Shown: positions 11,850-27,197 of the stretch, one piece after another
Numbering within the stretch: position 1 is the stretch's first letter
Layout of the letters: every line of letters starts with the position of its first letter
Assembly (NCBI GenBank): GCA_022703505.1
Contig: JAKLDN010000001.1
Coordinates: 219,389-283,388 of the forward strand
Direction of reading: 5' to 3'
Origin: Spirochaetota bacterium
Lineage (GTDB): Bacteria; Spirochaetota; Spirochaetia; Treponematales; UBA12059
DNA length: 64,000 bases
Notes under the pieces: generated by a model
The model's database searches: none
Seen by the model: the letters and a program-made list of their open reading frames with translations, nothing else
What the model was told of the DNA's origin: nothing
Program-made: the position numbers and the translations under genes

Positions 11850-12248
11850 ATGGACATCCTCCTGCGCGCCACCATCTACATCTCGGTCGCCGTCATCCTG
11901 CTGTGGATGTTCCTGGGCCTCTTCGGCCCGTACCGGCGGCGCCGGACCCTCCTCAAGGCGGGGGACAAGGCCGCGACGGAGGACCTGCCCCGGACCTGCC
12001 CCCTCTGCGGCGAGGTCCTGTCGCCGGGGCAGAGGGTCAAGACCCGGGTGAACCCGGGCCAAGGGGACAAGCTCATGCAGATCTTCGGCTGTCCCCACTG
12101 CTACCCCCCCAACATTGAATGCAAGCGGATCTGTCCGGTCTGCGAGAAGGAAGTCCCCCGGCAGGGCTACGTGATCGCCCGGCTCTTCGAGCATCCCGGC
12201 CGCAAGCACGTCCACGTCCTGGGGTGCTCGGGCTGCCGGAACACGTGA
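11850..12248 (+). CDS. small membrane-anchored Cys-rich (4x CxxC) zinc-ribbon protein, function unknown
   Basis: The 132-aa ORF has an N-terminal TM segment (IYISVAVILLWMFLGLF) followed by CPLC, CPHC, CPVC and CSGC. Confidence 0.6.
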   Translation: MDILLRATIYISVAVILLWMFLGLFGPYRRRRTLLKAGDKAATEDLPRTCPLCGEVLSPGQRVKTRVNPGQGDKLMQIFGCPHCYPPNIECKRICPVCEKEVPRQGYVIARLFEHPGRKHVHVLGCSGCRNT

Positions 12249-12276
12249 AATCCGGAAGACGGACGAAGGCGATACT

Positions 12277-13515
12277 ATGAAGGGCAAGCAAGTACAGAGA
12301 CTCCTCTTCCTGGCGGTGTTCCTCTTCCTGTTCCTGTTCGTGGCGCGGCTGTTCTCCCCCTTCTTCAGCATCCTGCTCTGGGCGGGACTCCTGTACGTCA
12401 TAACCTTTCCCTTCTACGACCGGGCGACCCGCTCGATCCCCGACAAGCCCCTGGGACGCTTCGCGCGCAAGCTGCTGGCGGGAGGCTTCGCCCTGGGCTC
12501 CGTCCTGGCCGCGGTCATCCCCCTGGTTTTTCTGGGCTCCACGTTGCTGGGCCAGGCCCGGGAGCTCGTCCACTCGATCGACGAGTTCCTGGAACGGAAT
12601 CCGGACTTCTTCCGGACCCTGGACACGGGCGGCCTGGCCATGCGCCTGCGGGACACCTCCGGAGGCCTCATAGACCTGACCGGGATGGACCTGATGTCGG
12701 AACTGTCCGCGGCGGTCACCCGCGGTGCGGAGACCTTCCTGACCGTCTCGGCGACCCTCCTCCGGGACACCGCGGGGTTCGTCGTCTCCCTGGCCTTCCT
12801 GACCTTCACCCTCTACTTCTTCTACGTGGACGGCAAGGATCTGATCCGTACCTTCGTGAACGCCGTGCCCATCGAGAACGCCTACACCGCCGCCTTCCTG
12901 CGAAGGTTCGGGGAGGTCGGTAAACACCTCTTCCGGGGCTACCTGCTCGTGGCCCTCTACCAGGGAACCGCGGCCTTCCTCATATTCCTGCTCTTCGGCG
13001 TGAAGGGCCCCCTGCCCCTGGGGTTCTTGACGGCCATAGCCTCCTTCGTGCCCATGGTGGGGACCACCCTGGTCTGGGGACCCGTCGGGGTCGCGCGCAT
13101 CGTATCCGGGGATCCGACGGCCGGATTCGCCATCCTGATCCTCTCCTTCATCCTGGTTTCCGGGGTGGACAACCTTCTACGGCCCCTCCTGCTCACGGAG
13201 CGCATCAAGATCCACCCCCTGCTGGTCTTCTTCTCCATCATGGGGGGCCTCCAGCTCTTCGGTCTGAACGGCCTCATCCTGGGGCCCATGATGCTGATGC
13301 TCTTCTTCACCGGGGTGGACCTCTTCGAGCAGGCCTACGGGACCCGGAAGTCCGGGCGCGGCGGAGGGGAATCCGACACCGCGGGGTCCCCGGCGGGGGT
13401 CGACGGGGATGCGGATGCCGGGACGGGCCCGGACGCCGGGGAGGGGGAAACCGAGGCGGCCCCCGAGCCTCCCGGAGTCAACGGTCCAGGGCCTCCAGGT
13501 ACGAGTCCGCGATAG
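12277..13515 (+). CDS. AI-2E family transporter (PerM/UPF0118)
   Basis: The 412-aa polytopic membrane protein has the typical family layout. Its C-terminal tail is Gly/Pro/Asp-rich. Confidence 0.8.
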   Translation: MKGKQVQRLLFLAVFLFLFLFVARLFSPFFSILLWAGLLYVITFPFYDRATRSIPDKPLGRFARKLLAGGFALGSVLAAVIPLVFLGSTLLGQARELVHSIDEFLERNPDFFRTLDTGGLAMRLRDTSGGLIDLTGMDLMSELSAAVTRGAETFLTVSATLLRDTAGFVVSLAFLTFTLYFFYVDGKDLIRTFVNAVPIENAYTAAFLRRFGEVGKHLFRGYLLVALYQGTAAFLIFLLFGVKGPLPLGFLTAIASFVPMVGTTLVWGPVGVARIVSGDPTAGFAILILSFILVSGVDNLLRPLLLTERIKIHPLLVFFSIMGGLQLFGLNGLILGPMMLMLFFTGVDLFEQAYGTRKSGRGGGESDTAGSPAGVDGDADAGTGPDAGEGETEAAPEPPGVNGPGPPGTSPR

Positions 13516-14305
13516 GCCGGTCCCCCGCCGTGTAGCCCAGGCGCCGGTCCGGCCGGTTGGCGCCGTGGAAGTCGCTGCCCGCGGTCACCCGGAAGCCCAG
13601 GTCCCGGGCCATCTTCTCCAGGCGCTGGCAGTGCCCCGGCCGGGCGGTCGGGTGCCAGGCCTCGATCCCCGCGATCCCCAGCTCCTTCCATTCCAGGAAG
13701 AGGGACCCCAGGCGGGACCAGGACACGAAGAGGGACAGGGGATGGGCCACGATGGGCAGGCCCCCGGCCTCGTAGATCACCCGGACCGCCTCCTTCAGTT
13801 CCAGGCATTCCTTGGCCACGTAGAAGGGCCGGCCCTTGCCCAGGTACTTGTCGAAGGCGTCCTGCTTCTTACGGACCACCTTCCGGGCGATCAGGAAATC
13901 CGCGATGTGGGGCCGGCCGATCATGCCCCCCGCGGCGGCCTCCCGGAGTTCCCCGTAGTCTCCCTCGATCCCCGCGGCCCGCATCCGCTCGAAGATCCGC
14001 TCGTTGCGCTCATCCCGGGACCGGGCCAGGCGTCCCACCGCCTCCCGGATGGCCCCCTCGGTATCCCGGAGGTCCAGGCCCAGGAGGTGGAACTCCCCGG
14101 GTGAGAAGGCCACCTCGATCTCCACCCCCGGGATGAAGCGGAGGCCCCTCCGCAGGGCTTCCGCCCGGGCCTCCGCCAGGCCCGAGAGGGAGTCGTGGTC
14201 CGTGAGGGCCAGGGCCGTGAGCTTGCGGTCCGCGGCCAGATCTGCCAGGGCCTCGGGATCGTAGGTCCCGTCGGAGGCGGTGGAGTGGGTGTGCAGGTCG
14301 ATCAC
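13478..14305 (-). CDS. PHP-domain phosphoesterase (TrpH/YciV-like)
   Basis: The N-terminus VIDLHTHSTASDGTY is followed by ALTDHDS. The GTG start at 14305 has a GGGGAG 8 nt upstream and overlaps the upstream stop (GTGA). Confidence 0.8.
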   Translation of the reverse strand: MIDLHTHSTASDGTYDPEALADLAADRKLTALALTDHDSLSGLAEARAEALRRGLRFIPGVEIEVAFSPGEFHLLGLDLRDTEGAIREAVGRLARSRDERNERIFERMRAAGIEGDYGELREAAAGGMIGRPHIADFLIARKVVRKKQDAFDKYLGKGRPFYVAKECLELKEAVRVIYEAGGLPIVAHPLSLFVSWSRLGSLFLEWKELGIAGIEAWHPTARPGHCQRLEKMARDLGFRVTAGSDFHGANRPDRRLGYTAGDRPIADSYLEALDR

Positions 14306-15108
14306 CGTGAAAGCTCCCCGGTGCGGCCGAAGACCCGGACCGGAACCCCCGGGGCGCGGCGGGACACGAGGTCCGCGGCGGCCGAAAGATCGGCTTCCGG
14401 CAGGGGGGAGGTCCGGCCCTCCGGGGAGGGACGGGCCTGGGTATAGAGGTGGATCTCCAGGAACCGGGCCCCCCGGCCGAGGACGTCCTCCACCAGCCCG
14501 GCGTAGTCGGCGAGGTCCGCGTCCGAGGGTCCCCGGCCGTCCAGGGTGCAGAGCATGGTCTGGACGATCACGGCATGGGCCGAGGAAAAGGACAGGATCC
14601 CCTCCACGACATCCCGGAAGGGGACGCGGCTGCGGCTCATCCGGCCGTACCACTCCTCGTTCCCCCCGTCCAGCTTGGCCCAGATACGGAGGCCCGCCTC
14701 GTCCACGCAGCGCCCCAGGAGGGCCGCGGTTTCCGGATGCCCCAGGGTGGTGGAATTGGTGATCAACACCAGATCCGCCCCGGGAGCCCAGCGGTCCCGG
14801 GCGGTCCGGATCGAGGCCAGGGCGGATCCCAGGTGGGGCGACAGGGTGGGCTCCCCGCTCCCGCTCAGGGTGAGGTCCCGGAGGGGAAGGTCCGGGGGGA
14901 AGGAGGGGTAGTCCACCTCGAAGAACTCAGCGAGCTCCCTGTCGAGATCCTCCGGCCGGAAGGGGGGCTCCCCGGGAAACGGGAAAATCTCGCAGTAGGG
15001 ACAGTCGAAGTTGCAGGTCTTGCGGTCCGGAAAGAGATCCACCCCCAGGGACAGGCCCCCGGCTCGGCGGGAGACCACGGGGTAGATCAGCTCCAGGGGA
15101 GTGAACAT
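14302..15108 (-). CDS. radical SAM domain protein
   Basis: A CNFDCPYC (CxxxCxxC) cluster motif lies near the N-terminus, followed by GSGEPTL. Confidence 0.8.
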   Translation of the reverse strand: MFTPLELIYPVVSRRAGGLSLGVDLFPDRKTCNFDCPYCEIFPFPGEPPFRPEDLDRELAEFFEVDYPSFPPDLPLRDLTLSGSGEPTLSPHLGSALASIRTARDRWAPGADLVLITNSTTLGHPETAALLGRCVDEAGLRIWAKLDGGNEEWYGRMSRSRVPFRDVVEGILSFSSAHAVIVQTMLCTLDGRGPSDADLADYAGLVEDVLGRGARFLEIHLYTQARPSPEGRTSPLPEADLSAAADLVSRRAPGVPVRVFGRTGELSR

Positions 15109-15237
15109 GGATATAGACTAACTCCGTAGCCGGGGACGGAGCAAGGAGGAGGTCCGGAGGATCTTCACAAGCCTCGTACTGCCGGCGCGGGAGGTACCTC
15201 TTGACAGGTACGCCGCGAGTGTGTTTCTATGCAAAGT

Positions 15238-15321
15238 ATGATTACCCTGGGTACGGGAAACATCAATCGCCTCCATCATCACGGGCACCACGGGTCGCGG
15301 TCGCGGCACGGCGGGAGGTAG
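15238..15321 (+). CDS. hisL: his operon leader peptide (27 aa, MITLGTGNINRLHHHGHHGSRSRHGGR)
   Basis: This small ORF is not in the track. Six of its 27 codons are His, five of them in HHHGHH at 15274-15291. It lies directly upstream of two terminator hairpins and hisG. Confidence 0.6.
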   Translation: MITLGTGNINRLHHHGHHGSRSRHGGR

Positions 15322-15356
15322 GATCGTACCGAGAGGTGCATCGAACCGAACGACGG

Positions 15357-15389
15357 GGCGCCGACCGCGAGGTCGGCGCCTTTATTTTT
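15357..15389 (+). terminator. attenuator terminator T1
   Basis: GGCGCCGACC-GCGA-GGTCGGCGCC followed by TTTATTTTT. Confidence 0.75.
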
Positions 15390-15390
15390 A

Positions 15391-15429
15391 GGGGCGCCGG
15401 CCGTAGTGGACCGGCGCCCCCGTTTTTTT
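15391..15429 (+). terminator. attenuator terminator T2
   Basis: GGGGCGCCGG-(10-nt loop)-CCGGCGCCCC followed by CGTTTTTTT. It ends 18 nt before the hisG ATG. Confidence 0.75.
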
Positions 15430-15447
15430 CGACGCGAGAGGACGGAT

Positions 15448-16314
15448 ATGGACGAAGCGAAGGTCTTGAAGATCGCCCTGCCCAAGGGGCGCATGCAGGA
15501 AGGGGTGTTCCGCCTCCTTTCGGACGCGGGCCTGCCCATCAAGGGGGACGAGCGGGACTACCGGCCCCGCCTCCCCTCCCCGGACCTGGACGCCAAGATC
15601 CTGAAACCCCGGAACACCCTGGAGATGCTCCACGCGGGCACCCGGGACCTGGGATTCGCGGGCTCCGACTGGGTGGAAGAGCTGGGGGTCGAGCTGACGG
15701 ACATGCTGGACACGGGGCTGGACCCCGTGCGCCTGGTGGCCGCGGCCCCGGTGGCCATCCTGGAGGACGGCCGCCTGCCCCGCCGCCCCCTGGTGGTGGC
15801 CAGCGAGTACGAGAACATCGCCCGCCGCTGGATCGCCGGCCGGGACCTGGACGCCACATTCGTCCGTTCCTACGGGGCCACCGAGGTCTTCCCCCCGGAC
15901 GACGCGGACTGCATCGTGGACAACACCGCCACGGGCTCGACCCTCCGGGCCAACGGCCTCGAGATCGTGGACGAGCTCCTGCGGAGCTCGACCCGCCTCT
16001 ACGCCAACCCCCGGTCCCTGGAGGACCCCTGGAAGCGGGACACCATCGAGGCCATCGTCCTCCTTTTGCGGAGCGTCCTGACCGCCCGCAGCCGGGTCAT
16101 GCTGGAGCTGAACGTGGACACCTACAAGCTGGACTCGGTCATCGCCATCCTGCCCTGCATGCGGGAGCCTACGGTCTCCCCCCTCCGGGGTGGGGACGGG
16201 TACGCGGTCAAGGTGGCGGCGCCCCGGGACTCCCTGGCGGCCCTGATCCCGGAGATCCGGAGGCGGGGCGGGACGGACATCATCGTCACCCAGCCCATGA
16301 GGATCGTGCCGTGA
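15448..16314 (+). CDS. hisG: ATP phosphoribosyltransferase, long form with C-terminal regulatory domain
   Basis: The start MDEAKVLKIALPKGRM and the motifs DLGFAGSDWV and DNTATGSTLRANGL are present. The C-terminal HisG_C-like domain implies no HisZ is needed. Confidence 0.9.
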   Translation: MDEAKVLKIALPKGRMQEGVFRLLSDAGLPIKGDERDYRPRLPSPDLDAKILKPRNTLEMLHAGTRDLGFAGSDWVEELGVELTDMLDTGLDPVRLVAAAPVAILEDGRLPRRPLVVASEYENIARRWIAGRDLDATFVRSYGATEVFPPDDADCIVDNTATGSTLRANGLEIVDELLRSSTRLYANPRSLEDPWKRDTIEAIVLLLRSVLTARSRVMLELNVDTYKLDSVIAILPCMREPTVSPLRGGDGYAVKVAAPRDSLAALIPEIRRRGGTDIIVTQPMRIVP

Positions 16315-17405
16315 ATACCGCGGACGAGCGGGACGGGTACCGGGCCCAGGAACGGCCGGTCGTAGGCTACGTCCCTCCCGCCCGGGACCCCCGGATCCGG
16401 TGGTTCCTGGACGCCAACGAGGGCCGCCCCTCCCGGGCCGCCCTGGCCGCCCTGGCGGGAGCGGCGACGATGGAAACCTCCCGCCGCTACCCCCGCACCG
16501 CGGAACTGGAGGCGGTCATAGCGGCCCGGCCCAAGGCGGGGTACGAGCCCCTTTCCCCCTCCCGGGTCCTGGTGACCGCGGGAGGGGACGATGCCATCGC
16601 CCGGGCCTGCCGGGTCTTCCTCAAGCCCGGGGACACCCTGGTGGTCTTCGAACCGGCCTTCGAAATGTACTCCATCGGCGCCCGCCTTTCGGGCGCCCGG
16701 ACCGTCGGGGTGCCCTGGCCCCCGGGGGAGCCCTTCCCCCTGGAAGCCGCGATCGAGACGGCCCGATCCTGCCGGGCCGCCGCTGTGGCCCTGGTCAATC
16801 CCGCCAACCCCGCGGGGGGACTGGCCTCCCCGGAGGTAACAGAGGAGCTGATGGACGCCCTCCCGGATACGAGCGTCTGGGTGGACGGGGCCTACGCGGA
16901 CTTCTCGCGGACCGATTCCCTGGCCGCGGCCCTGTCCCGGCCCAACGGCCTGGCCCTGCGGTCCTTCTCCAAGACCTACGGACTCGCGGGCCTGCGGGTG
17001 GGCTGGGCCGCGGGCACTCCGGAGACCATCGCGGCCCTGCGCGCCGCGGGGGATCCCTTTCCCGTGGCGGGCCCCTCCCTGGCCGCGGCCCTGGCCGCCC
17101 GGAGCCCCGAGGGGGAGGCGGAGACTTCCCGCATCGTGACCCGGCTGGTCCGGGAACGGGAGACCCTGTACCGCCTGCTCGGGGACCTCGGTGCCCGGCC
17201 CTATCCGTCGGAGACGAACTTCGTCCTGGCCCGGGTGAAGGATCCCTCGGGCCTCAAGGAAGCCCTGGCCTCTCGGGGCGTCGCCATCCGGGCCTATCCG
17301 GGGCGTCCGGGCCTCGAGGCGATGATCCGCATCAGCGGCCCCGCGGACCGGGAGGGCTTCGGAGTCCTGGCCCGGGCCCTGCGGGAATCGAAGGAGTACC
17401 TATGA
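16311..17405 (+). CDS. hisC: histidinol-phosphate aminotransferase
   Basis: The GTG start overlaps the hisG stop (GTGA). The PLP-lysine motif RSFSKTYGLAGLRVGW and NPANPAG are present. Confidence 0.85.
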   Translation: MNTADERDGYRAQERPVVGYVPPARDPRIRWFLDANEGRPSRAALAALAGAATMETSRRYPRTAELEAVIAARPKAGYEPLSPSRVLVTAGGDDAIARACRVFLKPGDTLVVFEPAFEMYSIGARLSGARTVGVPWPPGEPFPLEAAIETARSCRAAAVALVNPANPAGGLASPEVTEELMDALPDTSVWVDGAYADFSRTDSLAAALSRPNGLALRSFSKTYGLAGLRVGWAAGTPETIAALRAAGDPFPVAGPSLAAALAARSPEGEAETSRIVTRLVRERETLYRLLGDLGARPYPSETNFVLARVKDPSGLKEALASRGVAIRAYPGRPGLEAMIRISGPADREGFGVLARALRESKEYL

Positions 17406-18010
17406 GCGACACGATCTCCGTTCCGGCCCTTCGGAGGGCGTCCCTGCGTCGGGAGACCCGGGAAACCCGGATCGAGGCCTCCCTGGACCTCGCGCCCGGG
17501 GAGGTGAAGGTGGACACGGGCATCGGCTTCCTGGACCACCTCCTCTCGTCCCTGGCCTTCCACGGGGGATTCTCCCTGGCCCTGGCCTGCCGGGGGGACC
17601 TGGCCGTGGACGACCACCACACGGCGGAGGACTGCGGCCTCGTGCTGGGGGACCTCGTGCGCCAGGCCCTGGGGGACCGCTCGGGGATCCGCCGCTTCGC
17701 CTCCGCCTACGCCCCCCTGGACGAGGCCCTGGCCCGGGCGGTGGTGGACATCTCCGGCCGGCCATTCGCCCGTGTCGACCTGAAGCTGGCCCGGGACTCC
17801 GTCGGGACCCTGGCCTGCGAGAACATCCCCCACGTCGTCGCGAGCTTCGCGACCCGGGCGGGGATCACGGTCCACCTGGAGGTCCTGTACGGGGACAACG
17901 ACCACCACAAGGCCGAGGCGGCCTTCAAAGCCCTGGCCCTGGCCCTCCGGGAGGCCTGGGCCCTCTCGGGCTCCGGCGCGGTGCCCAGCGCCAAGGGGGT
18001 CCTGGCATGA
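17402..18010 (+). CDS. hisB: imidazoleglycerol-phosphate dehydratase
   Basis: There is an ATGA overlap with hisC. Motifs are GIGFLDHLL, DDHHTAEDCGL and GDNDHHKAEAAFKA. Confidence 0.9.
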   Translation: MSDTISVPALRRASLRRETRETRIEASLDLAPGEVKVDTGIGFLDHLLSSLAFHGGFSLALACRGDLAVDDHHTAEDCGLVLGDLVRQALGDRSGIRRFASAYAPLDEALARAVVDISGRPFARVDLKLARDSVGTLACENIPHVVASFATRAGITVHLEVLYGDNDHHKAEAAFKALALALREAWALSGSGAVPSAKGVLA

Positions 18011-19485
18011 GGACGGCCGTCGTCCGCACCGGCACCGCCAACCTGGCCTCCGTCCTGGCGGGGCTCCGGAGGGCCGGGGCCGAGCCCTACGTCACCGAGG
18101 ATCCCGGGGATGTCCTGCGGGAGGGCCGGGTGATCCTGCCCGGGGTGGGCTCCTTCGGGGCGGCCCTGGCCGAGCTCCGCTCCCGGGGCCTGGACCGGGC
18201 CCTGGCGGAGCGCTTCCGGGCCGGCAGGCCCCTGGCGGGGTTCTGCCTGGGCATGCAGCTCTTTTTCGAGGCCAGCGAGGAGAGCCCCGGGGTCCGGGGC
18301 CTGGCCCTCCTTCCCGGGACGATCCGGAAGTACCCCGACACCGTGCGCACCCCCCGGCTGGGCTGGGGGGCCGTCCTTCCCGACCCCGGCTCGGGCTGCC
18401 TGGAGCCCGGGTGGGCGGCCTTCGCCAACTCCTACCGCCTGGTCGAGCCGCCCCCGGGCCTGCGCACCGCCTGGGCGGATTACGCGGGCCCCTTCGCGGC
18501 CGCCCTGGAGAGGCCGGGCCTCCTCCTCTGCCAGTTCCACCCGGAGCTCTCCGGGGCCTGGGGGAAGGCCCTCCTTTCCCGGTGGCTCGAGGGAGCCGGG
18601 GCGGCGGACGGATTGACGGCCGAGGGCCCCGGGGCCCGGGTATCCCGCCCCCCCGCCGAGCCCCTGTCGGGCACCCGGTCCGTCCGGGTCATCCCCTGCC
18701 TGGACGTGGACGCGGGCCGCGTGGTCAAGGGCACCCGGTTCCTGGACCTCAAGGACGCGGGGGATCCCGCCGAGCTGGCCGCCCGGTACGAGGGCGAGGG
18801 GGCGGACGAGATCGTGCTATTGGACATCACCGCGGGGCTCGAGGGCCGGGCCACCCGGGCGGACACGGTCCGCCGGGTCCGGGCCGCCCTGGGCATCCCC
18901 CTGACCGTGGGGGGAGGGATCGGATCCGTGGCGGACGCGGCGGTCCTCTTCGAGGCGGGGGCGGACAAGGTATCCGTGAACTCCAAGGCCGTCCGGGATC
19001 CCGCCATCCTGACGGAACTGGCGGAGCGCTTCGGGGTCCAGGCGGTGGTGATCGCCGTGGACGCCGCGAGGCGACCGGACGCCGCAAGGCGACCGGACGC
19101 GGCCGGACGCCTGTCCGGCGCCAGGCCGGAAGGCGCCTCCCCCTGGGAGGTGACGGTGGACGCGGGGCGGACCCGGACGGGCCTGGACCCCGCGGCCTGG
19201 GCCCGCCGGGCCGTCGAGGCGGGGGCCGGGGAGGTCCTCCTGACCGGACGGGACCGGGACGGCACGGGGCTGGGCTACGACCTGGACCTGGTGTCCGAGG
19301 TGGCCCGGGCGGTGCCCGTGCCCGTGGTGGCCTCCGGGGGAGCGGAAACCCCCCGGCAGATGTACGAGGGTGTCGCGGCCGGGGCGGCCGCGGTCCTGGC
19401 GGCCGGGACCTTCCATTTCGGGCGCCGCACGATACACGAGGTCAAGGCATACTTGGCCGAAAGACAGGTGGAGGTAAGACCATGA
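18007..19485 (+). CDS. hisHF: fused imidazole glycerol phosphate synthase (HisH glutaminase fused to HisF cyclase)
   Basis: A single 492-aa ORF. The N-terminal half has GFCLGMQL and QFHPE (the triad glutaminase). A linker of about 30 aa follows, then the HisF half with RVIPCLDV and GADKVSVNS. Confidence 0.85.
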   Translation: MRTAVVRTGTANLASVLAGLRRAGAEPYVTEDPGDVLREGRVILPGVGSFGAALAELRSRGLDRALAERFRAGRPLAGFCLGMQLFFEASEESPGVRGLALLPGTIRKYPDTVRTPRLGWGAVLPDPGSGCLEPGWAAFANSYRLVEPPPGLRTAWADYAGPFAAALERPGLLLCQFHPELSGAWGKALLSRWLEGAGAADGLTAEGPGARVSRPPAEPLSGTRSVRVIPCLDVDAGRVVKGTRFLDLKDAGDPAELAARYEGEGADEIVLLDITAGLEGRATRADTVRRVRAALGIPLTVGGGIGSVADAAVLFEAGADKVSVNSKAVRDPAILTELAERFGVQAVVIAVDAARRPDAARRPDAAGRLSGARPEGASPWEVTVDAGRTRTGLDPAAWARRAVEAGAGEVLLTGRDRDGTGLGYDLDLVSEVARAVPVPVVASGGAETPRQMYEGVAAGAAAVLAAGTFHFGRRTIHEVKAYLAERQVEVRP

Positions 19486-20792
19486 TCGTTCCTTCCATAG
19501 ACCTGATGGGCGGCCGGGCCGTCCAGCTCGAGGGCGGAGAGACCCTCAGGATCGACGCCGGGGACCCCCGGCCCAAGGCCGCGGAGTTCTCCCGGGTCGG
19601 GGAGCTCGCCGTGATCGACCTGGACGCGGCCCGGGGGGAGGGGGACAACCGCCGCCTGGTGGAGGACCTCGTCTCGGCCTATCCCTGCCGGGTGGGCGGG
19701 GGCATCCGGGACTACGAGACCGCGGTCCGCCTCCTGGACGCGGGGGCCCGGAAGGTTATCCTGGGGACCGCGGCCCGGCCGGACCTCCTTTCGCGCCTGC
19801 CCCGGGACCGGGTGATCGCCGCCCTGGACGCCCGGAACGGGGAAGTTGTGGTGGAGGGTTGGCGAACCCGCACGGGGGCCTCCGTGGCGGACCGGATCCG
19901 GGAGTTGGCCCCCTACGTCGGGGGCTTCCTGGTGACCACCGTGGAACGGGAGGGACGGATGGCCGGGGCGGACCTGGCCGCGGCGGCGGACGTCGTCCGC
20001 ATAGCCCGGGAATGCCGGGAGGACCTCCGGATCACCTGGGCCGGAGGCGTCACGTCGGCCGAGGAAGTGGCCGAACTGGACCGCCTGGGGGCGGACGCCC
20101 AGGTCGGGATGGCCCTGTACTCCGGCAGGCTCTCCCTGGCGGAAGCCTTCACGGCCCCCCTGGCTTCGGACCGCCCCGACGGGCTCTGGCCCGTGGTGGT
20201 CTGCGACGAAGCCGGGATCGCCCTGGGCCTCGTGTGGGGCGACCGGGAGAGCGTGGCGGAATCCCTGAAGCGCGGCCGGGGGGTCTACCGGTCCCGGACT
20301 CGGGGGCTCTGGGAAAAGGGTGCCTCCTCGGGGAACACCCAGGACCTGGTCCGCATCGAGGTCGACTGCGACCGGGACGCCCTCCGCTACGTGGTCCGCC
20401 AGAACGGCGGCGGGTTCTGTCACCTGGGCACCCGCACCTGCTTCGGCCCCGACCAAGGCCTGGGGGCCCTGGACCGGACCATCCGGGGCCGCCAGGAATC
20501 CTCCCCCCCGGGTTCCTACACCCACCGGCTTTTCACGGAACCGGGCCTCCTGTCCGCCAAGATCCGGGAGGAGGCCGCGGAACTCGCGGAGGCGGAGGGA
20601 CCCGTCCGGGCCGCCGAGGAAGCCGCGGACCTCGTCTACTTCGCCCTGGTGAAGCTCCGGGCCGAGGGGGCGTCCCTGGCGGATGTGGAACGCATCCTGG
20701 ACCGGCGGGCCCTGAAGGTTGTGCGGCGCCCGGGGAACGCCAAGCCGGCGTTCCAGGAGGAGGGAGGCACCCGGTGGACCGGAATCCACTGA
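19482..20792 (+). CDS. hisA-hisIE: fused ProFAR isomerase / PR-AMP cyclohydrolase / PR-ATP pyrophosphatase (HisA-HisI-HisE)
   Basis: A single 436-aa ORF. The HisA part has MIVPSIDLMGGRAV and VIDLDAA. The HisI part has SRTRGLWEKGASSGNTQ, DCDRDAL and CHLGTRTCF. The HisE part has GSYTHRLF and EEAADLVYFALV. There is an ATGA overlap with hisHF. Confidence 0.85.
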   Translation: MIVPSIDLMGGRAVQLEGGETLRIDAGDPRPKAAEFSRVGELAVIDLDAARGEGDNRRLVEDLVSAYPCRVGGGIRDYETAVRLLDAGARKVILGTAARPDLLSRLPRDRVIAALDARNGEVVVEGWRTRTGASVADRIRELAPYVGGFLVTTVEREGRMAGADLAAAADVVRIARECREDLRITWAGGVTSAEEVAELDRLGADAQVGMALYSGRLSLAEAFTAPLASDRPDGLWPVVVCDEAGIALGLVWGDRESVAESLKRGRGVYRSRTRGLWEKGASSGNTQDLVRIEVDCDRDALRYVVRQNGGGFCHLGTRTCFGPDQGLGALDRTIRGRQESSPPGSYTHRLFTEPGLLSAKIREEAAELAEAEGPVRAAEEAADLVYFALVKLRAEGASLADVERILDRRALKVVRRPGNAKPAFQEEGGTRWTGIH

Positions 20793-22081
20793 GGCTCCGG
20801 CGCCTCCGTGCTGCGGACCTGGAACGGAAACCCGCCTCCATCCCCGACCCCGTGACGGCGGACCGGGCGGCGGCCATCGTGGCGGACGTTCGGGAGCGCG
20901 GGGAGGCGGCCCTCCTCGGGTACGCCCGGGAACTGGACGGCCTGGGGGAGGGGCCCCTGTACCTCGGTCCCCGGGACTTCCGGAAGGCATTGGACGCCCT
21001 GCCCCGGGATTCCCGGGAACTCCTGGAGCGGGCGGGGGCCCGGATCGGGGCCTTCGCCAAGGCACAAGCCGCCAGCCTCTCGGCCCTGGAGGTACCCGTG
21101 CCCGGGGGCTTCGCGGGCCACGAGGTCCTGCCCGTGGAGACCGCGGGCTGCTACGCCCCGGGGGGCCGGTATCCCCTGCCCTCCAGCGTCCTCATGACCG
21201 CCCTGACCGCCAAGGCCGCAGGGGTCGGGACAGTCTGGACCGCGAGTCCCCGGCCCGCCCGGGAAACCCTGGCGGCCTGCGCCGTGGCCGGGGCGGACGG
21301 CCTTTTGGCCGCCGGGGGTGCCCAGGCGATCGCCGCCCTGGCCTACGGGGCGGGGCCGGTTCCTCCCTGCGCCCGGGTGGTGGGCCCCGGCAACCGCTGG
21401 GTGGCCGCGGCCAAGCGCCTGGTGGCGGGGGACACGGTCATCGAGTCCGTGGCGGGCCCCAGCGAGCTCCTGGTCCTGGCGGACGACGGGGCCGATCCCG
21501 AGATCGCCGCCGCGGACCTCCTGGCCCAGGCGGAACACGACCCCGATGCGGTCCCCGTCCTTGCCTGCCGTACCGAGGCCTTCGCCGCCCGGGTGGAGGA
21601 AGCCCTGGAGCGCCGCCTGGCGGATCTCCCGACCGGGGAGGTCGCCCGACGTGCCCTGGACAACGGGGGGGTCCTGGTGGACCCGGACCTGAAGACTCTT
21701 GTCCGCGCGGCGGACGCCTTCGCCCCGGAGCACCTGGAGATCCTGTGCGAGGAACCGGAGGCCCTGGCCCGGAAGATCCGCAACGCCGGCGCCGTCTTCC
21801 TGGGCGCCGGGACCGCGGAGGTCCTGGGGGACTACGGGACCGGTCCCAACCACGTCCTTCCCACGGGCGCCCACGCCCGCCTGGCCGGGGGCCTCTCGGC
21901 CCTGTCCTTCCTGCGGGTACGGACCTGGATCCGGATCGACGACCCCGCCGACGCTTCGGAGCTCTACCGGGACGCCGCCGCCTTCGCACGGATGGAAGGG
22001 CTGGAAGCCCATGCCCGGGCGGGGGAAGTACGGGGTCGGCGGCCGGTGGACAGCGGACGTAAAGCGCCTGCGGGCGCGTAG
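20774..22081 (+). CDS. hisD: histidinol dehydrogenase
   Basis: The GTG start lies 6 nt after AGGAGGAGGGAGG. Motifs are GCYAPGGRYPLPSSVLM, GGAQAIAALAYG, AGPSELLVLAD, AQAEHD and NHVLPT. Confidence 0.85.
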   Translation: MDRNPLRLRRLRAADLERKPASIPDPVTADRAAAIVADVRERGEAALLGYARELDGLGEGPLYLGPRDFRKALDALPRDSRELLERAGARIGAFAKAQAASLSALEVPVPGGFAGHEVLPVETAGCYAPGGRYPLPSSVLMTALTAKAAGVGTVWTASPRPARETLAACAVAGADGLLAAGGAQAIAALAYGAGPVPPCARVVGPGNRWVAAAKRLVAGDTVIESVAGPSELLVLADDGADPEIAAADLLAQAEHDPDAVPVLACRTEAFAARVEEALERRLADLPTGEVARRALDNGGVLVDPDLKTLVRAADAFAPEHLEILCEEPEALARKIRNAGAVFLGAGTAEVLGDYGTGPNHVLPTGAHARLAGGLSALSFLRVRTWIRIDDPADASELYRDAAAFARMEGLEAHARAGEVRGRRPVDSGRKAPAGA

Positions 22082-22123
22082 TCGCCCGGAGACGCGCGGC
22101 GGCGGGCGGGGCTACGGGTTCAG

Positions 22124-22564
22124 TTACTTCCCGGAAACCGCTGCGGCCAGGTTCCTTCCCGCCTCCGCCAGGGCCACAATGTCCGAGGCGGAGGGCGTCA
22201 GGTTCACGATGAACCCGCCGCCCGCCAGGGCTGCGCCGGCCTTCCTCATGCGCTCTTCCCAATCCCGCATCCACTGCCCGTCCCCCCAGTCGTAGGAGCC
22301 GAACAGGAGGACCGGCTTGCCCTCGAGTCCTGCGGATTCGAGGCTTCGCACGAAGGGCTCCATCTCCTCCTCTTCGAGGGTCTCGGCCCCCATGGAGGGG
22401 CAGCCCAGGGCAGCCGCGTCGGCCGCCAGTACGGACCGGACGTCCGCGGACCCGACTTCGGACAGTTCCGCCTCGGCCCCCGCGGATCGGGCACCCTCGG
22501 CCACGGCTTCCGCCATGGCCTTGGTGTTTCCCGTACCGCTCCAGTACACGACTCGTATGGTCAT
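22124..22564 (-). CDS. short-chain flavodoxin
   Basis: The 146-aa ORF has the N-terminal FMN phosphate loop VVYWSGTGNTKAMAE. Confidence 0.9.
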   Translation of the reverse strand: MTIRVVYWSGTGNTKAMAEAVAEGARSAGAEAELSEVGSADVRSVLAADAAALGCPSMGAETLEEEEMEPFVRSLESAGLEGKPVLLFGSYDWGDGQWMRDWEERMRKAGAALAGGGFIVNLTPSASDIVALAEAGRNLAAAVSGK

Positions 22565-22647
22565 GGGACATACCTCCCTGAATAGTTAGCTAATTATAAC
22601 TTACCCCTTCGAGGGTCCTATTTCAAGCCTCCGGTACCTCTCCTATC

Positions 22648-22685
22648 CCGTTCACTTTCCACTGTCCACCGTCCACAGTCCACGG
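22648..22685. repeat. GTCCAC/TTCAC heptamer array (locus E) abutting a TATACT -10 box upstream of hppA
   Basis: The sequence CCGTTCACTTTCCACTGTCCACCGTCCACAGTCCACGG is immediately followed by TATACT at 22686-22691. Confidence 0.8.
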
Positions 22686-22751
22686 TATACTACCCCCGCG
22701 CCCGGGGAAGTCGACTCCGGGGCGATACACCAACGACGAAGGAGAGAAGCC

Positions 22752-24827
<2,076 letters not shown>

Positions 24828-26288: not shown

Positions 26289-26432
26289 GAGTTTGTCGGG
26301 CTTGTCCACCTAAATAGTAAAAAAATCGCATTTGTGCGATTTTTCTACCTTGCAAACTCCAAAGGAGCCGTATAATCGGGATTTTTAGCGCCTATCGGCG
26401 CTAAAAATCCACAAGTCCGACAGGCTCCCTAG
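26285..26432. mobile_element. composite of two CTAG-bounded hairpin elements (subfamily 2 forward, subfamily 1 reverse), MITE/REP-like
   Basis: 26285-26360 has GGAGTTTG...CAAACTCC outer pairing and an AAAATCGCA-TTTG-TGCGATTTT core. 26364-26432 is the reverse complement of the element seen at 44511 and 62045. Confidence 0.8.
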
Positions 26433-27061
26433 GGACGCTGGATATAGTCCGCTGCGCCGAAGAGCCCCAGGGTGCCGGTCCGCCACTCCTCGTGGGCCTC
26501 CATCACCAGGCGCTCCACCTCGGACCAGGATTCCGCCCGGGGGGGCGGCAGGTGGCGGTTCGTGGAATTCCCGAACACGATGGTACGGCAGCCCTGGGCC
26601 CGGAGGTTCTCCACGTTGGAGGGTGAGTCGTCGATGTAGACGTGGGCTCCCACGGCCCCCTTGTCCTTCATGAAGCAGAGGTCCCAGTAGGGGATGGCGT
26701 GGGCGTCCAGCCAGTCGATGGTCTGGGCTATTGCTTCCTTGTGGAAGTATTTCAGGAAGAGCCGGTGGGTGATGATGCGGATGCGGATCCCACGCTCGGA
26801 CAGCTTGCGCAGGGTGGCCGAGGCGCCCTTCACGGGGGGCAGGATCCGGAAGAGGTCCCGCTGGGTCACGGCGAAACGGTGGAGCTTCTCGTAGCCCCCG
26901 AACTCGTCCAGCCCCCACTCGGAAAGGCCGAAGGACACGTCTGTGGCCAGGGACTCGACCGGCCGGTCCAGCCACTCCGCCGCGATCTGCCGCATGCTGG
27001 TGTAGAAGTCCCCCACCACCCCGTCCAGGTCCACGCCCAGGATGAAACTGCTCTCGTCCAT
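26429..27061 (-). CDS. HAD-superfamily 5'(3')-deoxyribonucleotidase-like hydrolase
   Basis: The HAD motif I is GVDLDGVVGDF. The start is taken at MDESSFILG (27061); the track ORF extends to 27175. Confidence 0.7.
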   Translation of the reverse strand: MDESSFILGVDLDGVVGDFYTSMRQIAAEWLDRPVESLATDVSFGLSEWGLDEFGGYEKLHRFAVTQRDLFRILPPVKGASATLRKLSERGIRIRIITHRLFLKYFHKEAIAQTIDWLDAHAIPYWDLCFMKDKGAVGAHVYIDDSPSNVENLRAQGCRTIVFGNSTNRHLPPPRAESWSEVERLVMEAHEEWRTGTLGLFGAADYIQRP

Positions 27062-27197
27062 ACCCGCCAGTATGGCGCGCCCGCCGCCGTCCGTCCACTC
27101 CTCCTTGGCCCCACCAAAATCGCCTAAGCTAAACTTCGACGCGCACTCGCCGAAGGAGGCGCGGAATGCTACCATGGGCTTCCATCAGGAGGCTCCC

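Follow-up and report, generated by a model that had tools for sequence, protein, structure and literature searches.

Histidine biosynthesis is a textbook case for gene fusion shaping pathways, and the locus described here raises the question of whether two composite open reading frames (ORFs), hisHF and hisAIE, are genuine and working enzymes and, if so, how they arose. The locus lies in a 64,000-nucleotide (nt) stretch of contig JAKLDN010000001.1 of an uncultured Spirochaetota bacterium (this whole stretch is referred to below as the window), where hisG, hisC, hisB, hisHF, hisAIE and hisD follow each other as an overlapping run of genes on the forward strand. The analysis indicates that this run, preceded by a leader, is very probably a chromosomal his operon in which both fused ORFs encode real, functional enzymes; this reading draws on the identity of the domains, their intact catalytic residues, the conservation of the fused frames and of the operon that contains them, and the predicted folds. 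The first-pass annotation, made from the letters of the sequence, had counted nine his gene-equivalents in six ORFs, a count that is correct, and its domain assignments for both fused ORFs agree with hidden Markov model annotation using Pfam and NCBIfam.

In the first fused protein (492 amino acids, aa), Pfam identified the GATase and His_biosynth (219 bits) domains, while the HisH and HisF assignments from Pfam and NCBIfam cover aa 4-195 and aa 226-491, respectively, with both halves reaching their curated NCBIfam cut-offs. The motifs previously read from the sequence were located at aa 78 (GFCLGMQ), aa 176 (QFHPE) and aa 227 (RVIPCLDV), with a linker of approximately 30 aa between the halves. 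The Cys-His-Glu triad of the glutaminase (Cys80, His178 and Glu180) is invariant among 22 fused sequences, and the catalytic Asp pair of HisF (D11 and D130 in T. maritima) is kept, in RVIPCLD and in AVD after beta-5, respectively. Solved prokaryotic HisF structures (Thermus, Pyrobaculum and a reconstructed HisF) share 52-55% identity with the cyclase half. An AlphaFold2 model of the protein (predicted local distance difference test, pLDDT, 89; predicted template modelling score, pTM, 0.89), in which linker residues 200-209 are disordered (pLDDT <50), superposes over the whole chain on yeast HIS7 (1ox4/1jvn) with a template modelling (TM) score of 0.83, and the glutaminase is thus predicted to be docked at the base (N-terminal face) of the cyclase barrel, as in HIS7. 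Two local peculiarities were noted in this protein. An 18-nt tandem duplication (19060-19095) repeats the hexapeptide DAARRP in a variable loop of HisF, immediately after the catalytic Asp; P0122 shares the duplication, and P0121, a relative of 98% identity, lacks it. Additionally, the spirochaete clade of the window (the query through P0135 in alignment A3, 64-99% identical) carries LGWG at HisH aa ~112-120 (18340-18360), near the HisF interface, where other HisH sequences, including those of more distant Rectinemataceae/Spirochaetaceae metagenome-assembled genomes (MAGs), have a GWN motif.

The second fused protein (436 aa) comprises HisA, HisI and HisE modules in one frame, of which the HisE module exceeds its NCBIfam cut-off (TIGR03188, 60.8 bits versus 42.7). 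The HisI ligands in DCDRD (D295, C296, D297 and D299), together with Cys313, His314 and Cys320, are invariant, as are the residues of the HisE acidic motif (EExxE/ExxD; E363, E364, E367, E380 and D383) and, across phyla, residues D7, D116 and E157 of the HisA module. The junction between HisA and HisI (...LAEAF.APL.SDRPDGLWP...) is conserved with neither length variation nor a variable linker (alignments A1 and A2). The AlphaFold2 model of the protein is compact (pLDDT 90.7, pTM 0.84), and its C-terminal part fits Medicago HISN2; Foldseek superposed the HisA domain on Salmonella HisA and M. tuberculosis PriA with a TM score of 0.84 and a root-mean-square deviation of 1.9-2.1 A, and less well on HisF (TM 0.71-0.75). 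In the structure search with this model, no solved PDB chain spanned more than approximately half of the protein.

Several points nevertheless weigh against reading this protein as a trifunctional enzyme. The HisA module is divergent, scoring 138 bits with TIGR00007 where the NCBIfam HisA cut-off is 229, and the HisIE part likewise falls below the HisIE equivalog cut-off (122 bits versus 187, NF002747). Furthermore, Glu157, which sits in a VEREG motif invariant within the HisA-IE family, aligns with the general acid Asp176 (beta-6) of Salmonella HisA; the arrangement of the domains relative to each other is a prediction only, and the enzymatic activities of the family are deduced from sequence. 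The low HisA score and the exchanged catalytic Asp, in addition to the fact that by plain sequence comparison with PDB chains the barrel is nearly as close to HisF-LUCA (66 bits) as to HisA (72 bits), would suit a barrel that is no working ProFAR (phosphoribosylformimino-aminoimidazole carboxamide ribonucleotide) isomerase and serves as a HisF- or PriA-like paralogue or a scaffold, with step 4 of the pathway encoded elsewhere. We consider this very improbable, as the profile scores are strongly those of a HisA (138 bits for TIGR00007 as opposed to 34 for HisF), the barrel model fits HisA and PriA better than HisF, and the three residues named above are invariant across phyla. The beta-1 Asp (D7) is retained, and glutamate is plausibly competent, chemically, as the general acid. 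Moreover, the operon already has a HisF, and HisA would otherwise be its only gap, which is the case in nearly every related locus. The homologues of this protein are named only 'phosphoribosyl-ATP diphosphatase' or 'HisIE' in the source databases. Since the curated HisA and HisIE equivalog models miss proteins of this kind, the hisA step may appear absent in automated reconstructions, and those of Planctomycetota, Myxococcota and Spirochaetota genomes may thus wrongly report it as missing.

Indel errors do occur in high-GC metagenome assemblies, and in unfused relatives the adjacent genes overlap in different frames, so that one indel could imitate a fusion; a lost stop codon or a frameshift may accordingly be supposed to have created either junction, hisH-hisF or hisA-hisIE, in this contig. 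The G+C content around the his locus is ~68-75%. Against this stands the architecture of the best 120 matches to each fused protein: for the 436-aa protein, all 120 show the three A-I-E domains, and for the 492-aa protein all 120, every one of them bacterial, are fused HisH-HisF proteins, the same fused frames being found in many independent assemblies from NCBI, ENA, JGI and Logan. Among HisHF proteins of 77-99% identity to that of the window, the linker ranges from ~20 to ~55 residues, yet the differences are whole codons (multiples of three nt) and the flanking domains are conserved, while the A-I junction is among the best-conserved stretches of its protein. In addition, third-position GC, which is 0.89-0.95 in the assigned frames of the his ORFs, is steady at ~0.9 throughout both fused ORFs. 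The comparison across independent assemblies and the in-frame variation of the linker effectively refute an assembly or sequencing error, which we regard as having next to no chance of being correct. Both ORFs are thus genuine fusions, as had been proposed, with intact frames and with the catalytic residues present apart from the Asp-to-Glu exchange in HisA.

The coordinates of the operon, of the modules within the fused ORFs and of the neighbouring features are given in Table 1. The 4-nt overlaps that the first-pass annotation had named were matched exactly on reading the sequence, namely GTGA at hisG/hisC and ATGA at hisC/hisB, hisB/hisHF and hisHF/hisAIE. For hisG, the mechanically delimited ORF begins at 15406, and the start is most likely the ATG at 15448, which lies 3' of the leader terminators described below. 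At the end of hisAIE no ATG, GTG or TTG is present at 20789, where a CTGA junction lacks a canonical start; the start of hisD is most likely the GTG at 20774, which is preceded by a strong Shine-Dalgarno sequence (GGAGGAGGGAGG) and generates a 19-nt out-of-frame overlap with hisAIE. The identical 19-nt overlap is annotated in a relative (locus L081). A one-base indel in this overlap would generate an A-I-E-D fusion such as is present in other bacteria.

Table 1. Features of the his locus and its surroundings, with positions in the window
Feature	Position	Strand	Description
PHP-family gene	13478-14305	-	TrpH/YciV type; probable GTG start at 14305
Radical-SAM gene	15108-14302	-	4-nt overlap with the PHP-family gene; pair divergent from the his operon
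Leader ORF	15238..15321	+	MITLGTGNINRLHHHGHHGSRSRHGGR*; 27 codons, HHHGHH; His at five of six consecutive codons and once more farther on
Tandem hairpins	15355..15428	+	GC-rich, each followed by a U-run; T1 15355-15389, T2 15391-15428; candidate attenuator terminators
hisG	15448..16314	+	Long-form ATP phosphoribosyltransferase; HisG and HisG_C domains (Pfam, NCBIfam)
hisC	16311..17405	+	Histidinol-phosphate aminotransferase (Pfam, NCBIfam)
hisB	17402..18010	+	Imidazoleglycerol-phosphate dehydratase only; IGPD 200 bits
hisHF ORF	18007-19485	+	Single open frame, 492 aa
HisH (glutaminase) module	18007..18591	+	aa 1-195; TIGR01855 132 bits, cut-off 105
H-F linker	18592..18681	+	aa 196-225; length and sequence hypervariable among relatives
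HisF (cyclase) module	18682..19485	+	aa 226-492; TIGR00735 297.5 bits, cut-off 294.55
hisAIE ORF	19482-20792	+	436 aa
HisA (ProFAR isomerase) module	19482..20156	+	aa 1-225; His_biosynth 1-217, 135 bits (Pfam)
HisI (phosphoribosyl-AMP cyclohydrolase) module	20157..20456	+	aa 226-325; PRA-CH 250-321, 86 bits
HisE (phosphoribosyl-ATP pyrophosphohydrolase) module	20457..20792	+	aa 326-436; PRA-PH 329-409, 63 bits
hisD	20774..22081	+	Histidinol dehydrogenase; sixth ORF, probable GTG start (Pfam)
NT5C-type 5'-nucleotidase (HAD superfamily)	26429-27175	-	4.3 kb downstream of hisD

The distribution of HisA-IE was explored by scanning one genome per GTDB species, which yielded at least 528 candidate loci; full length was checked in the best 80, all of which encode the complete protein (query residues 1 to ~407-436 matched). 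These 80 loci span at least eight phyla. The closest among the matches listed is that of an 'uncultured Spirochaetes bacterium' MAG (L001), with an A-I-E part 94% identical to that of the window, and other carriers among the best 80 include Treponema, Myxococcota (Polyangiaceae, Nannocystaceae and Bradymonadales), Planctomycetota/Phycisphaerae, Geminicoccaceae, Gemmatimonadota/Longimicrobiales, Acidobacteriota, Krumholzibacteriia and Fimbriimonadaceae. Cultured carriers include Marinimicrococcus flavescens (Geminicoccaceae) and Engelhardtia mirabilis. Identity is 55-66% between phyla, and 55-94% over the bacterial and amoebozoan members together. When the proteins of the window were mapped onto the stop-to-stop ORFs of related loci, the gene order G-C-B-H-F-AIE-D was recovered in nearly every one, and the gene calls in L081 and L083 agree with it. 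Additionally, a 131-aa query spanning the A-I junction was compared with 1.84 billion cluster representatives, of which 32 were matched at E <= 1e-30, approximately half of the best 150 matches spanning the junction. Searches of protein databases thus found both architectures recurring across many uncultured bacteria and amoebae. The suggestion that a hisA-hisIE fusion is undescribed did not hold, given the earlier publication of the same linkage inside a heptafunctional protein of Acanthamoeba, and with this large, multi-phylum family the fusion is not rare. Since the A-I junction is conserved without length variation, the data point to one ancestral fusion that would have spread both vertically and horizontally.

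The HisH-HisF fusion has a different distribution, as hisH and hisF share one frame at only ~9 of the best 80 loci (L001, L005, L007, L008, L010, L026, L069, L076 and possibly L051). These loci, which make up ~9 of 75, are scattered on the A-I-E tree, and their linkers (9-40 aa) are unrelated in sequence. Loci with separate hisH and hisF have the two genes overlapping: the overlap is 7 nt (ATGCTGA) in 31 of 63, 4 nt in 10 and 1 nt in eight, so that a small indel would be enough to fuse them. The decisive case is a syntenic Spirochaetia MAG (L083/L084), the A-I-E part of which is 63% identical to that of the window; it is unfused, with a hisH of 241 aa and a hisF of 295 aa that overlap by 4 nt, and it shares the upstream genes of the window (TP_methylase, an AI-2E transporter and the PHP gene on the opposite strand). 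A Rectinemataceae MAG (L081) carries the H-F fusion. It had been stated that such a fusion is the hallmark of eukaryotic HIS7, a view that is not sustained by the uniformly bacterial set of fused homologues described above or by the publication of bacterial HisHF since 2007 (PMC1963479). Common descent with eukaryotic HIS7 was rejected on three grounds: the window protein is only 28-29% identical to yeast HIS7 (as opposed to 52-55% to prokaryotic HisF), the lengths differ (492 versus 555 aa), and the syntenic relative L083 is unfused, which argues that the fusion arose independently of HIS7. HisHF, on the evidence of its sequence and its modelled structure, is therefore predicted to fold like HIS7 and stands outside the HIS7 lineage. 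Most probably hisHF arose within the spirochaete lineage when two translationally coupled genes lost the overlap of the hisH stop with the hisF start, and the same event probably occurred independently in other lineages that possess this operon. A further point on the negative side is that the neighbour-joining trees are star-like and carry no support values, for which reason it is uncertain how often hisH and hisF fused independently and which way any transfer between bacteria and amoebae went.

Larger fusions were observed in both bacteria and amoebae. HisA-I-E-D occurs in one frame (~850 aa) at four loci (L048:8293-11088, L070:4708-7362, L072:7752-10523 and L078:7602-10721) and in protein P0255. 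Using the junction query and a concatenated HF+AIE query, polyproteins were found among amoebozoan transcripts (P0260, P0258, P0317, P0393, P0394 and P0395), with the architectures A-I-E-D-C-HAD in Protostelium nocturnum (1501 aa), A-I-E-G in Clastostelium recurvatum (777 aa), (A)-I-E-D-C in Arcella intermedia (1242 aa, N-terminally truncated) and H-F-A-I-E-D in both Stygamoeba regulata (1620 aa) and Paramoeba atlantica (1351 aa); metagenomic proteins of 687-1359 aa display F-A-I-E, F-A-I-E-D and H-F-A-I-E-B. Over ~425 residues, the A-I-E part of Protostelium is 55% and that of Clastostelium 58% identical to the window protein, while the concatenated query matches the Stygamoeba and Paramoeba proteins at 49% identity. 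The H-F part of Paramoeba is 43% identical to that of the window, and only ~20 residues separate the C-terminus of its HisF from the N-terminus of its HisA. By neighbour joining, in trees whose internal branches are very short and lack support, amoebozoan sequences cluster together, either inside the bacterial family or next to it. The forms observed can be arranged as a graded series that begins with separate genes, continues with HF and AIE and ends with A-I-E-D, F-A-I-E and H-F-A-I-E-D, and this series links the bacterial operon to the amoebozoan polyproteins. One may go further and suppose that the G-C-B-H-F-AIE-D operon was the direct source of these polyproteins and of the heptafunctional enzyme of Acanthamoeba, having been transferred whole and welded into one ORF with HisA-IE as an obligate channelling core; we offer this tentatively and on balance lean against it. 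If it were true, the window, as a partly fused example of this operon (HF | AIE | D), would represent a living intermediate in a stepwise series from operon to polyprotein. Separately, more distant single-chain fusions of 31-38% identity were detected (P0419 and P0427, ~933 aa; P0400 and P0405, ~860-900 aa), each combining HisH and HisI with one or two His_biosynth barrels, to which some add HisE; these are probably independent super-fusions.

As to function, HisAIE would convert phosphoribosyl-ATP (PR-ATP) to phosphoribulosylformimino-aminoimidazole carboxamide ribonucleotide (PRFAR) on one chain, with HisE, HisI and HisA catalysing steps 2, 3 and 4, respectively, and HisHF would act as a covalent imidazole-glycerol-phosphate synthase with ammonia delivered by way of the barrel. 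Given that the glutaminase is predicted to dock on the base of the barrel, ammonia tunnelling should work as it does in the HisH:HisF heterodimer. HisI structures are dimeric and, by analogy, HisAIE is probably a HisI-mediated dimer. The selective benefit of the fusions may lie in a fixed 1:1 stoichiometry and possibly in proximity channelling of phosphoribosyl-AMP (PR-AMP) and ProFAR. In this respect the two junctions differ, since the constraint on the A-I junction speaks for a functional interface, and the lack of constraint on the H-F linker for a simple tether. Kinetic data on Acinetobacter HisIE favour proximity channelling of PR-AMP; the same publication, with AROM as its example, also supplies a caution that counts against channelling here, in that fusion neither requires nor guarantees it (PMC10242683).

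That caution fits a more modest explanation, according to which the fusions are near-neutral by-products of operon compaction that bring at most a fixed stoichiometry and no kinetic channelling. Coupled overlapping genes, such as hisH and hisF with their overlaps of 1-7 nt in unfused loci, readily lose a stop codon; the H-F fusions are scattered and have unconstrained, variable linkers, as repeated neutral events would produce, and the extra fusions (A-I-E-D and F-A-I-E) are sporadic. Conversely, the A-I-E junction keeps a fixed, conserved sequence in at least eight phyla and also in eukaryotes, with no variable linker intervening, and this fixed junction, in combination with the compact HisAIE model, suggests a constrained interface and not a loose tether. 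HisH and HisF, too, form an obligatory 1:1 complex. Near-neutrality is therefore a serious contender, although we judge it to be somewhat the less probable account. With the fusions regarded as functional enzymes, HisAIE represents a natural system in which to ask whether linking three consecutive steps channels their intermediates.

Upstream of hisG, a short His-rich ORF is followed by two tandem hairpins (Table 1), with calculated energies of -25.5 (T1) and -27.8 kcal/mol (T2), and an alternative pairing of segments 2:3 was calculated at -27.0 kcal/mol. A duplex search suggested possible base pairing between positions 15292-15306, just 3' of the His codons, and the 5' arm of T1 (15355-15366), and pairing of this type is possible in all four spirochaete leaders (-17 to -21 kcal/mol), the same type of leader being present in the relatives L001, L081 and L083. 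ORFs with a run of His codons precede hisG in 41 of 63 related loci; the control figures are one of 63 for the antisense strand, 0.4 of 63 for shuffled sequences and two of 63 for a coding control. These leaders (4-9 consecutive His) lie 100-370 nt, mostly 140-250 nt, upstream of hisG in Planctomycetota, Myxococcota, Acidobacteriota, Gemmatimonadota and Krumholzibacteriia (L003, L008, L029, L041, L054, L074 and ~35 others), with a conserved terminator stem (...CGCCGGCC...), and are absent at the Geminicoccaceae/Alphaproteobacteria loci. The classical 1:2, 2:3 and 3:4 arrangement is visible in the leaders of other phyla. Thermodynamic folding with ribosome masks did not produce the anti-terminator, the pairing not being thermodynamically favoured, and Rfam identified no His_leader, T-box or riboswitch in positions 12000-24000 or in eight related loci; a weak TLS-PK3 match (E = 0.41) was dismissed as due to chance. 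The region is thus a conserved candidate for a leader-peptide attenuator of the his operon, in which stalling of a ribosome near the beginning of the His run would allow the 0:1 and 2:3 pairings and hence read-through of both terminators. The gamma-proteobacterial his leader (RF00514) and the candidate his attenuators of Firmicutes (PMC9413887) likewise consist of an ORF with His codons followed by terminator hairpins, whereas the leader in the window has two tandem terminators and no Rfam match, and elements of its kind occur in Spirochaetota, Planctomycetota, Myxococcota and other phyla.

The operon contains no recognisable histidinol-phosphate phosphatase, as noted earlier from the sequence, its hisB encoding the dehydratase domain only. 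The PHP-family gene adjacent to hisG was assessed as a candidate for a HisJ/HisK-type enzyme and rejected, as it belongs to the TrpH/YciV group of pAp (3'-phosphoadenosine 5'-phosphate) phosphatases and RNase AM and overlaps a radical-SAM gene. Its best NCBIfam models (3',5'-nucleoside bisphosphate phosphatase and RNase RNM) both score below cut-off, the HisJ family was not matched, and its closest PDB chains are 2yb1 and 7ug9. Adjacency of this gene to hisG is kept in L001, L010 and L083, and not in L081; its position beside hisG is attributed to conserved synteny (L083). A scan of ten small ORFs of the window for phosphatases found only an NT5C-type nucleotidase. To our knowledge the NT5C family includes no histidinol-phosphatases, and this gene was likewise rejected.

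The literature on his gene fusions offers several systems with which the two proteins may be compared. Fani et al. (2007) name five fusions among the his genes, together with three HisHF sequences from delta-proteobacteria (PMC1963479); in papers of 2021 and 2023 the same group names hisD, N, B, H, F, I and E as genes that take part in fusions, hisA not being among them (PMC8305728, PMC10138114). Among archaea, a survey of 2024 mentions in passing four MAGs with 'HisA/F fusions with HisIE' and notes that Archaeoglobales have HisHF (PMC11237513), while Rice et al. (2018) report the order HF-A-I-E-D-G for the heptafunctional protein of Acanthamoeba (PMC6029752). A literature search of incomplete coverage found no paper describing a stand-alone bacterial HisA-IE enzyme, and looking for the fusion under explicit names gave unrelated matches only. 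Bacterial HisHF and the linkage of A, I and E inside an amoebal polyprotein are thus already known, and both fusions are poorly described rather than fundamentally new; to the picture of his fusions drawn in the reviews, HisA-IE adds a sixth type.

Yeast HIS7 and plant HISN4 (1jvn, 1ox4) resemble the HisHF of the window in that a single chain begins with the glutaminase and ends with the (beta/alpha)8 cyclase; at 492 aa, however, the window protein is without the extra segments of HIS7 (555 aa). The published HisHF proteins of delta-proteobacteria (PMC1963479) and of Archaeoglobales and sulfate reducers (PMC11237513) are likewise prokaryotic and single-chain. In contrast to those delta-proteobacterial sequences, which were reported to carry HIS7-type insertions and to cluster with plant sequences (PMC1963479), fusions of the window type have short, non-homologous linkers and emerge repeatedly within one operon type. 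Bifunctional HisIE (for example 6j2l/6j22, Acinetobacter HisIE and Medicago HISN2) has the same order of I followed by E and the same metal-binding and EExxE motifs as the window protein, which adds an N-terminal HisA barrel with no linker. Fungal HIS4 (HisI-HisE-HisD) also extends HisIE, and the bacterial A-I-E-D relatives constitute a HIS4-like extension; HIS4 itself lacks a HisA module, and in the window hisD is a separate gene that overlaps hisAIE by 19 nt in another frame. A close parallel in module order is provided by the Acanthamoeba heptafunctional protein, in which HisA, HisI and HisE are covalently joined and the order H-F-A-I-E-D(-G) is collinear with hisHF, hisAIE and hisD of the window. 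This likeness concerns the published order of the modules, the identities of 55-58% stemming from other amoebozoans and not from Acanthamoeba itself, and what is a single polypeptide of 1,350-1,680 aa in the amoebae is distributed over three overlapping operon genes in the window.

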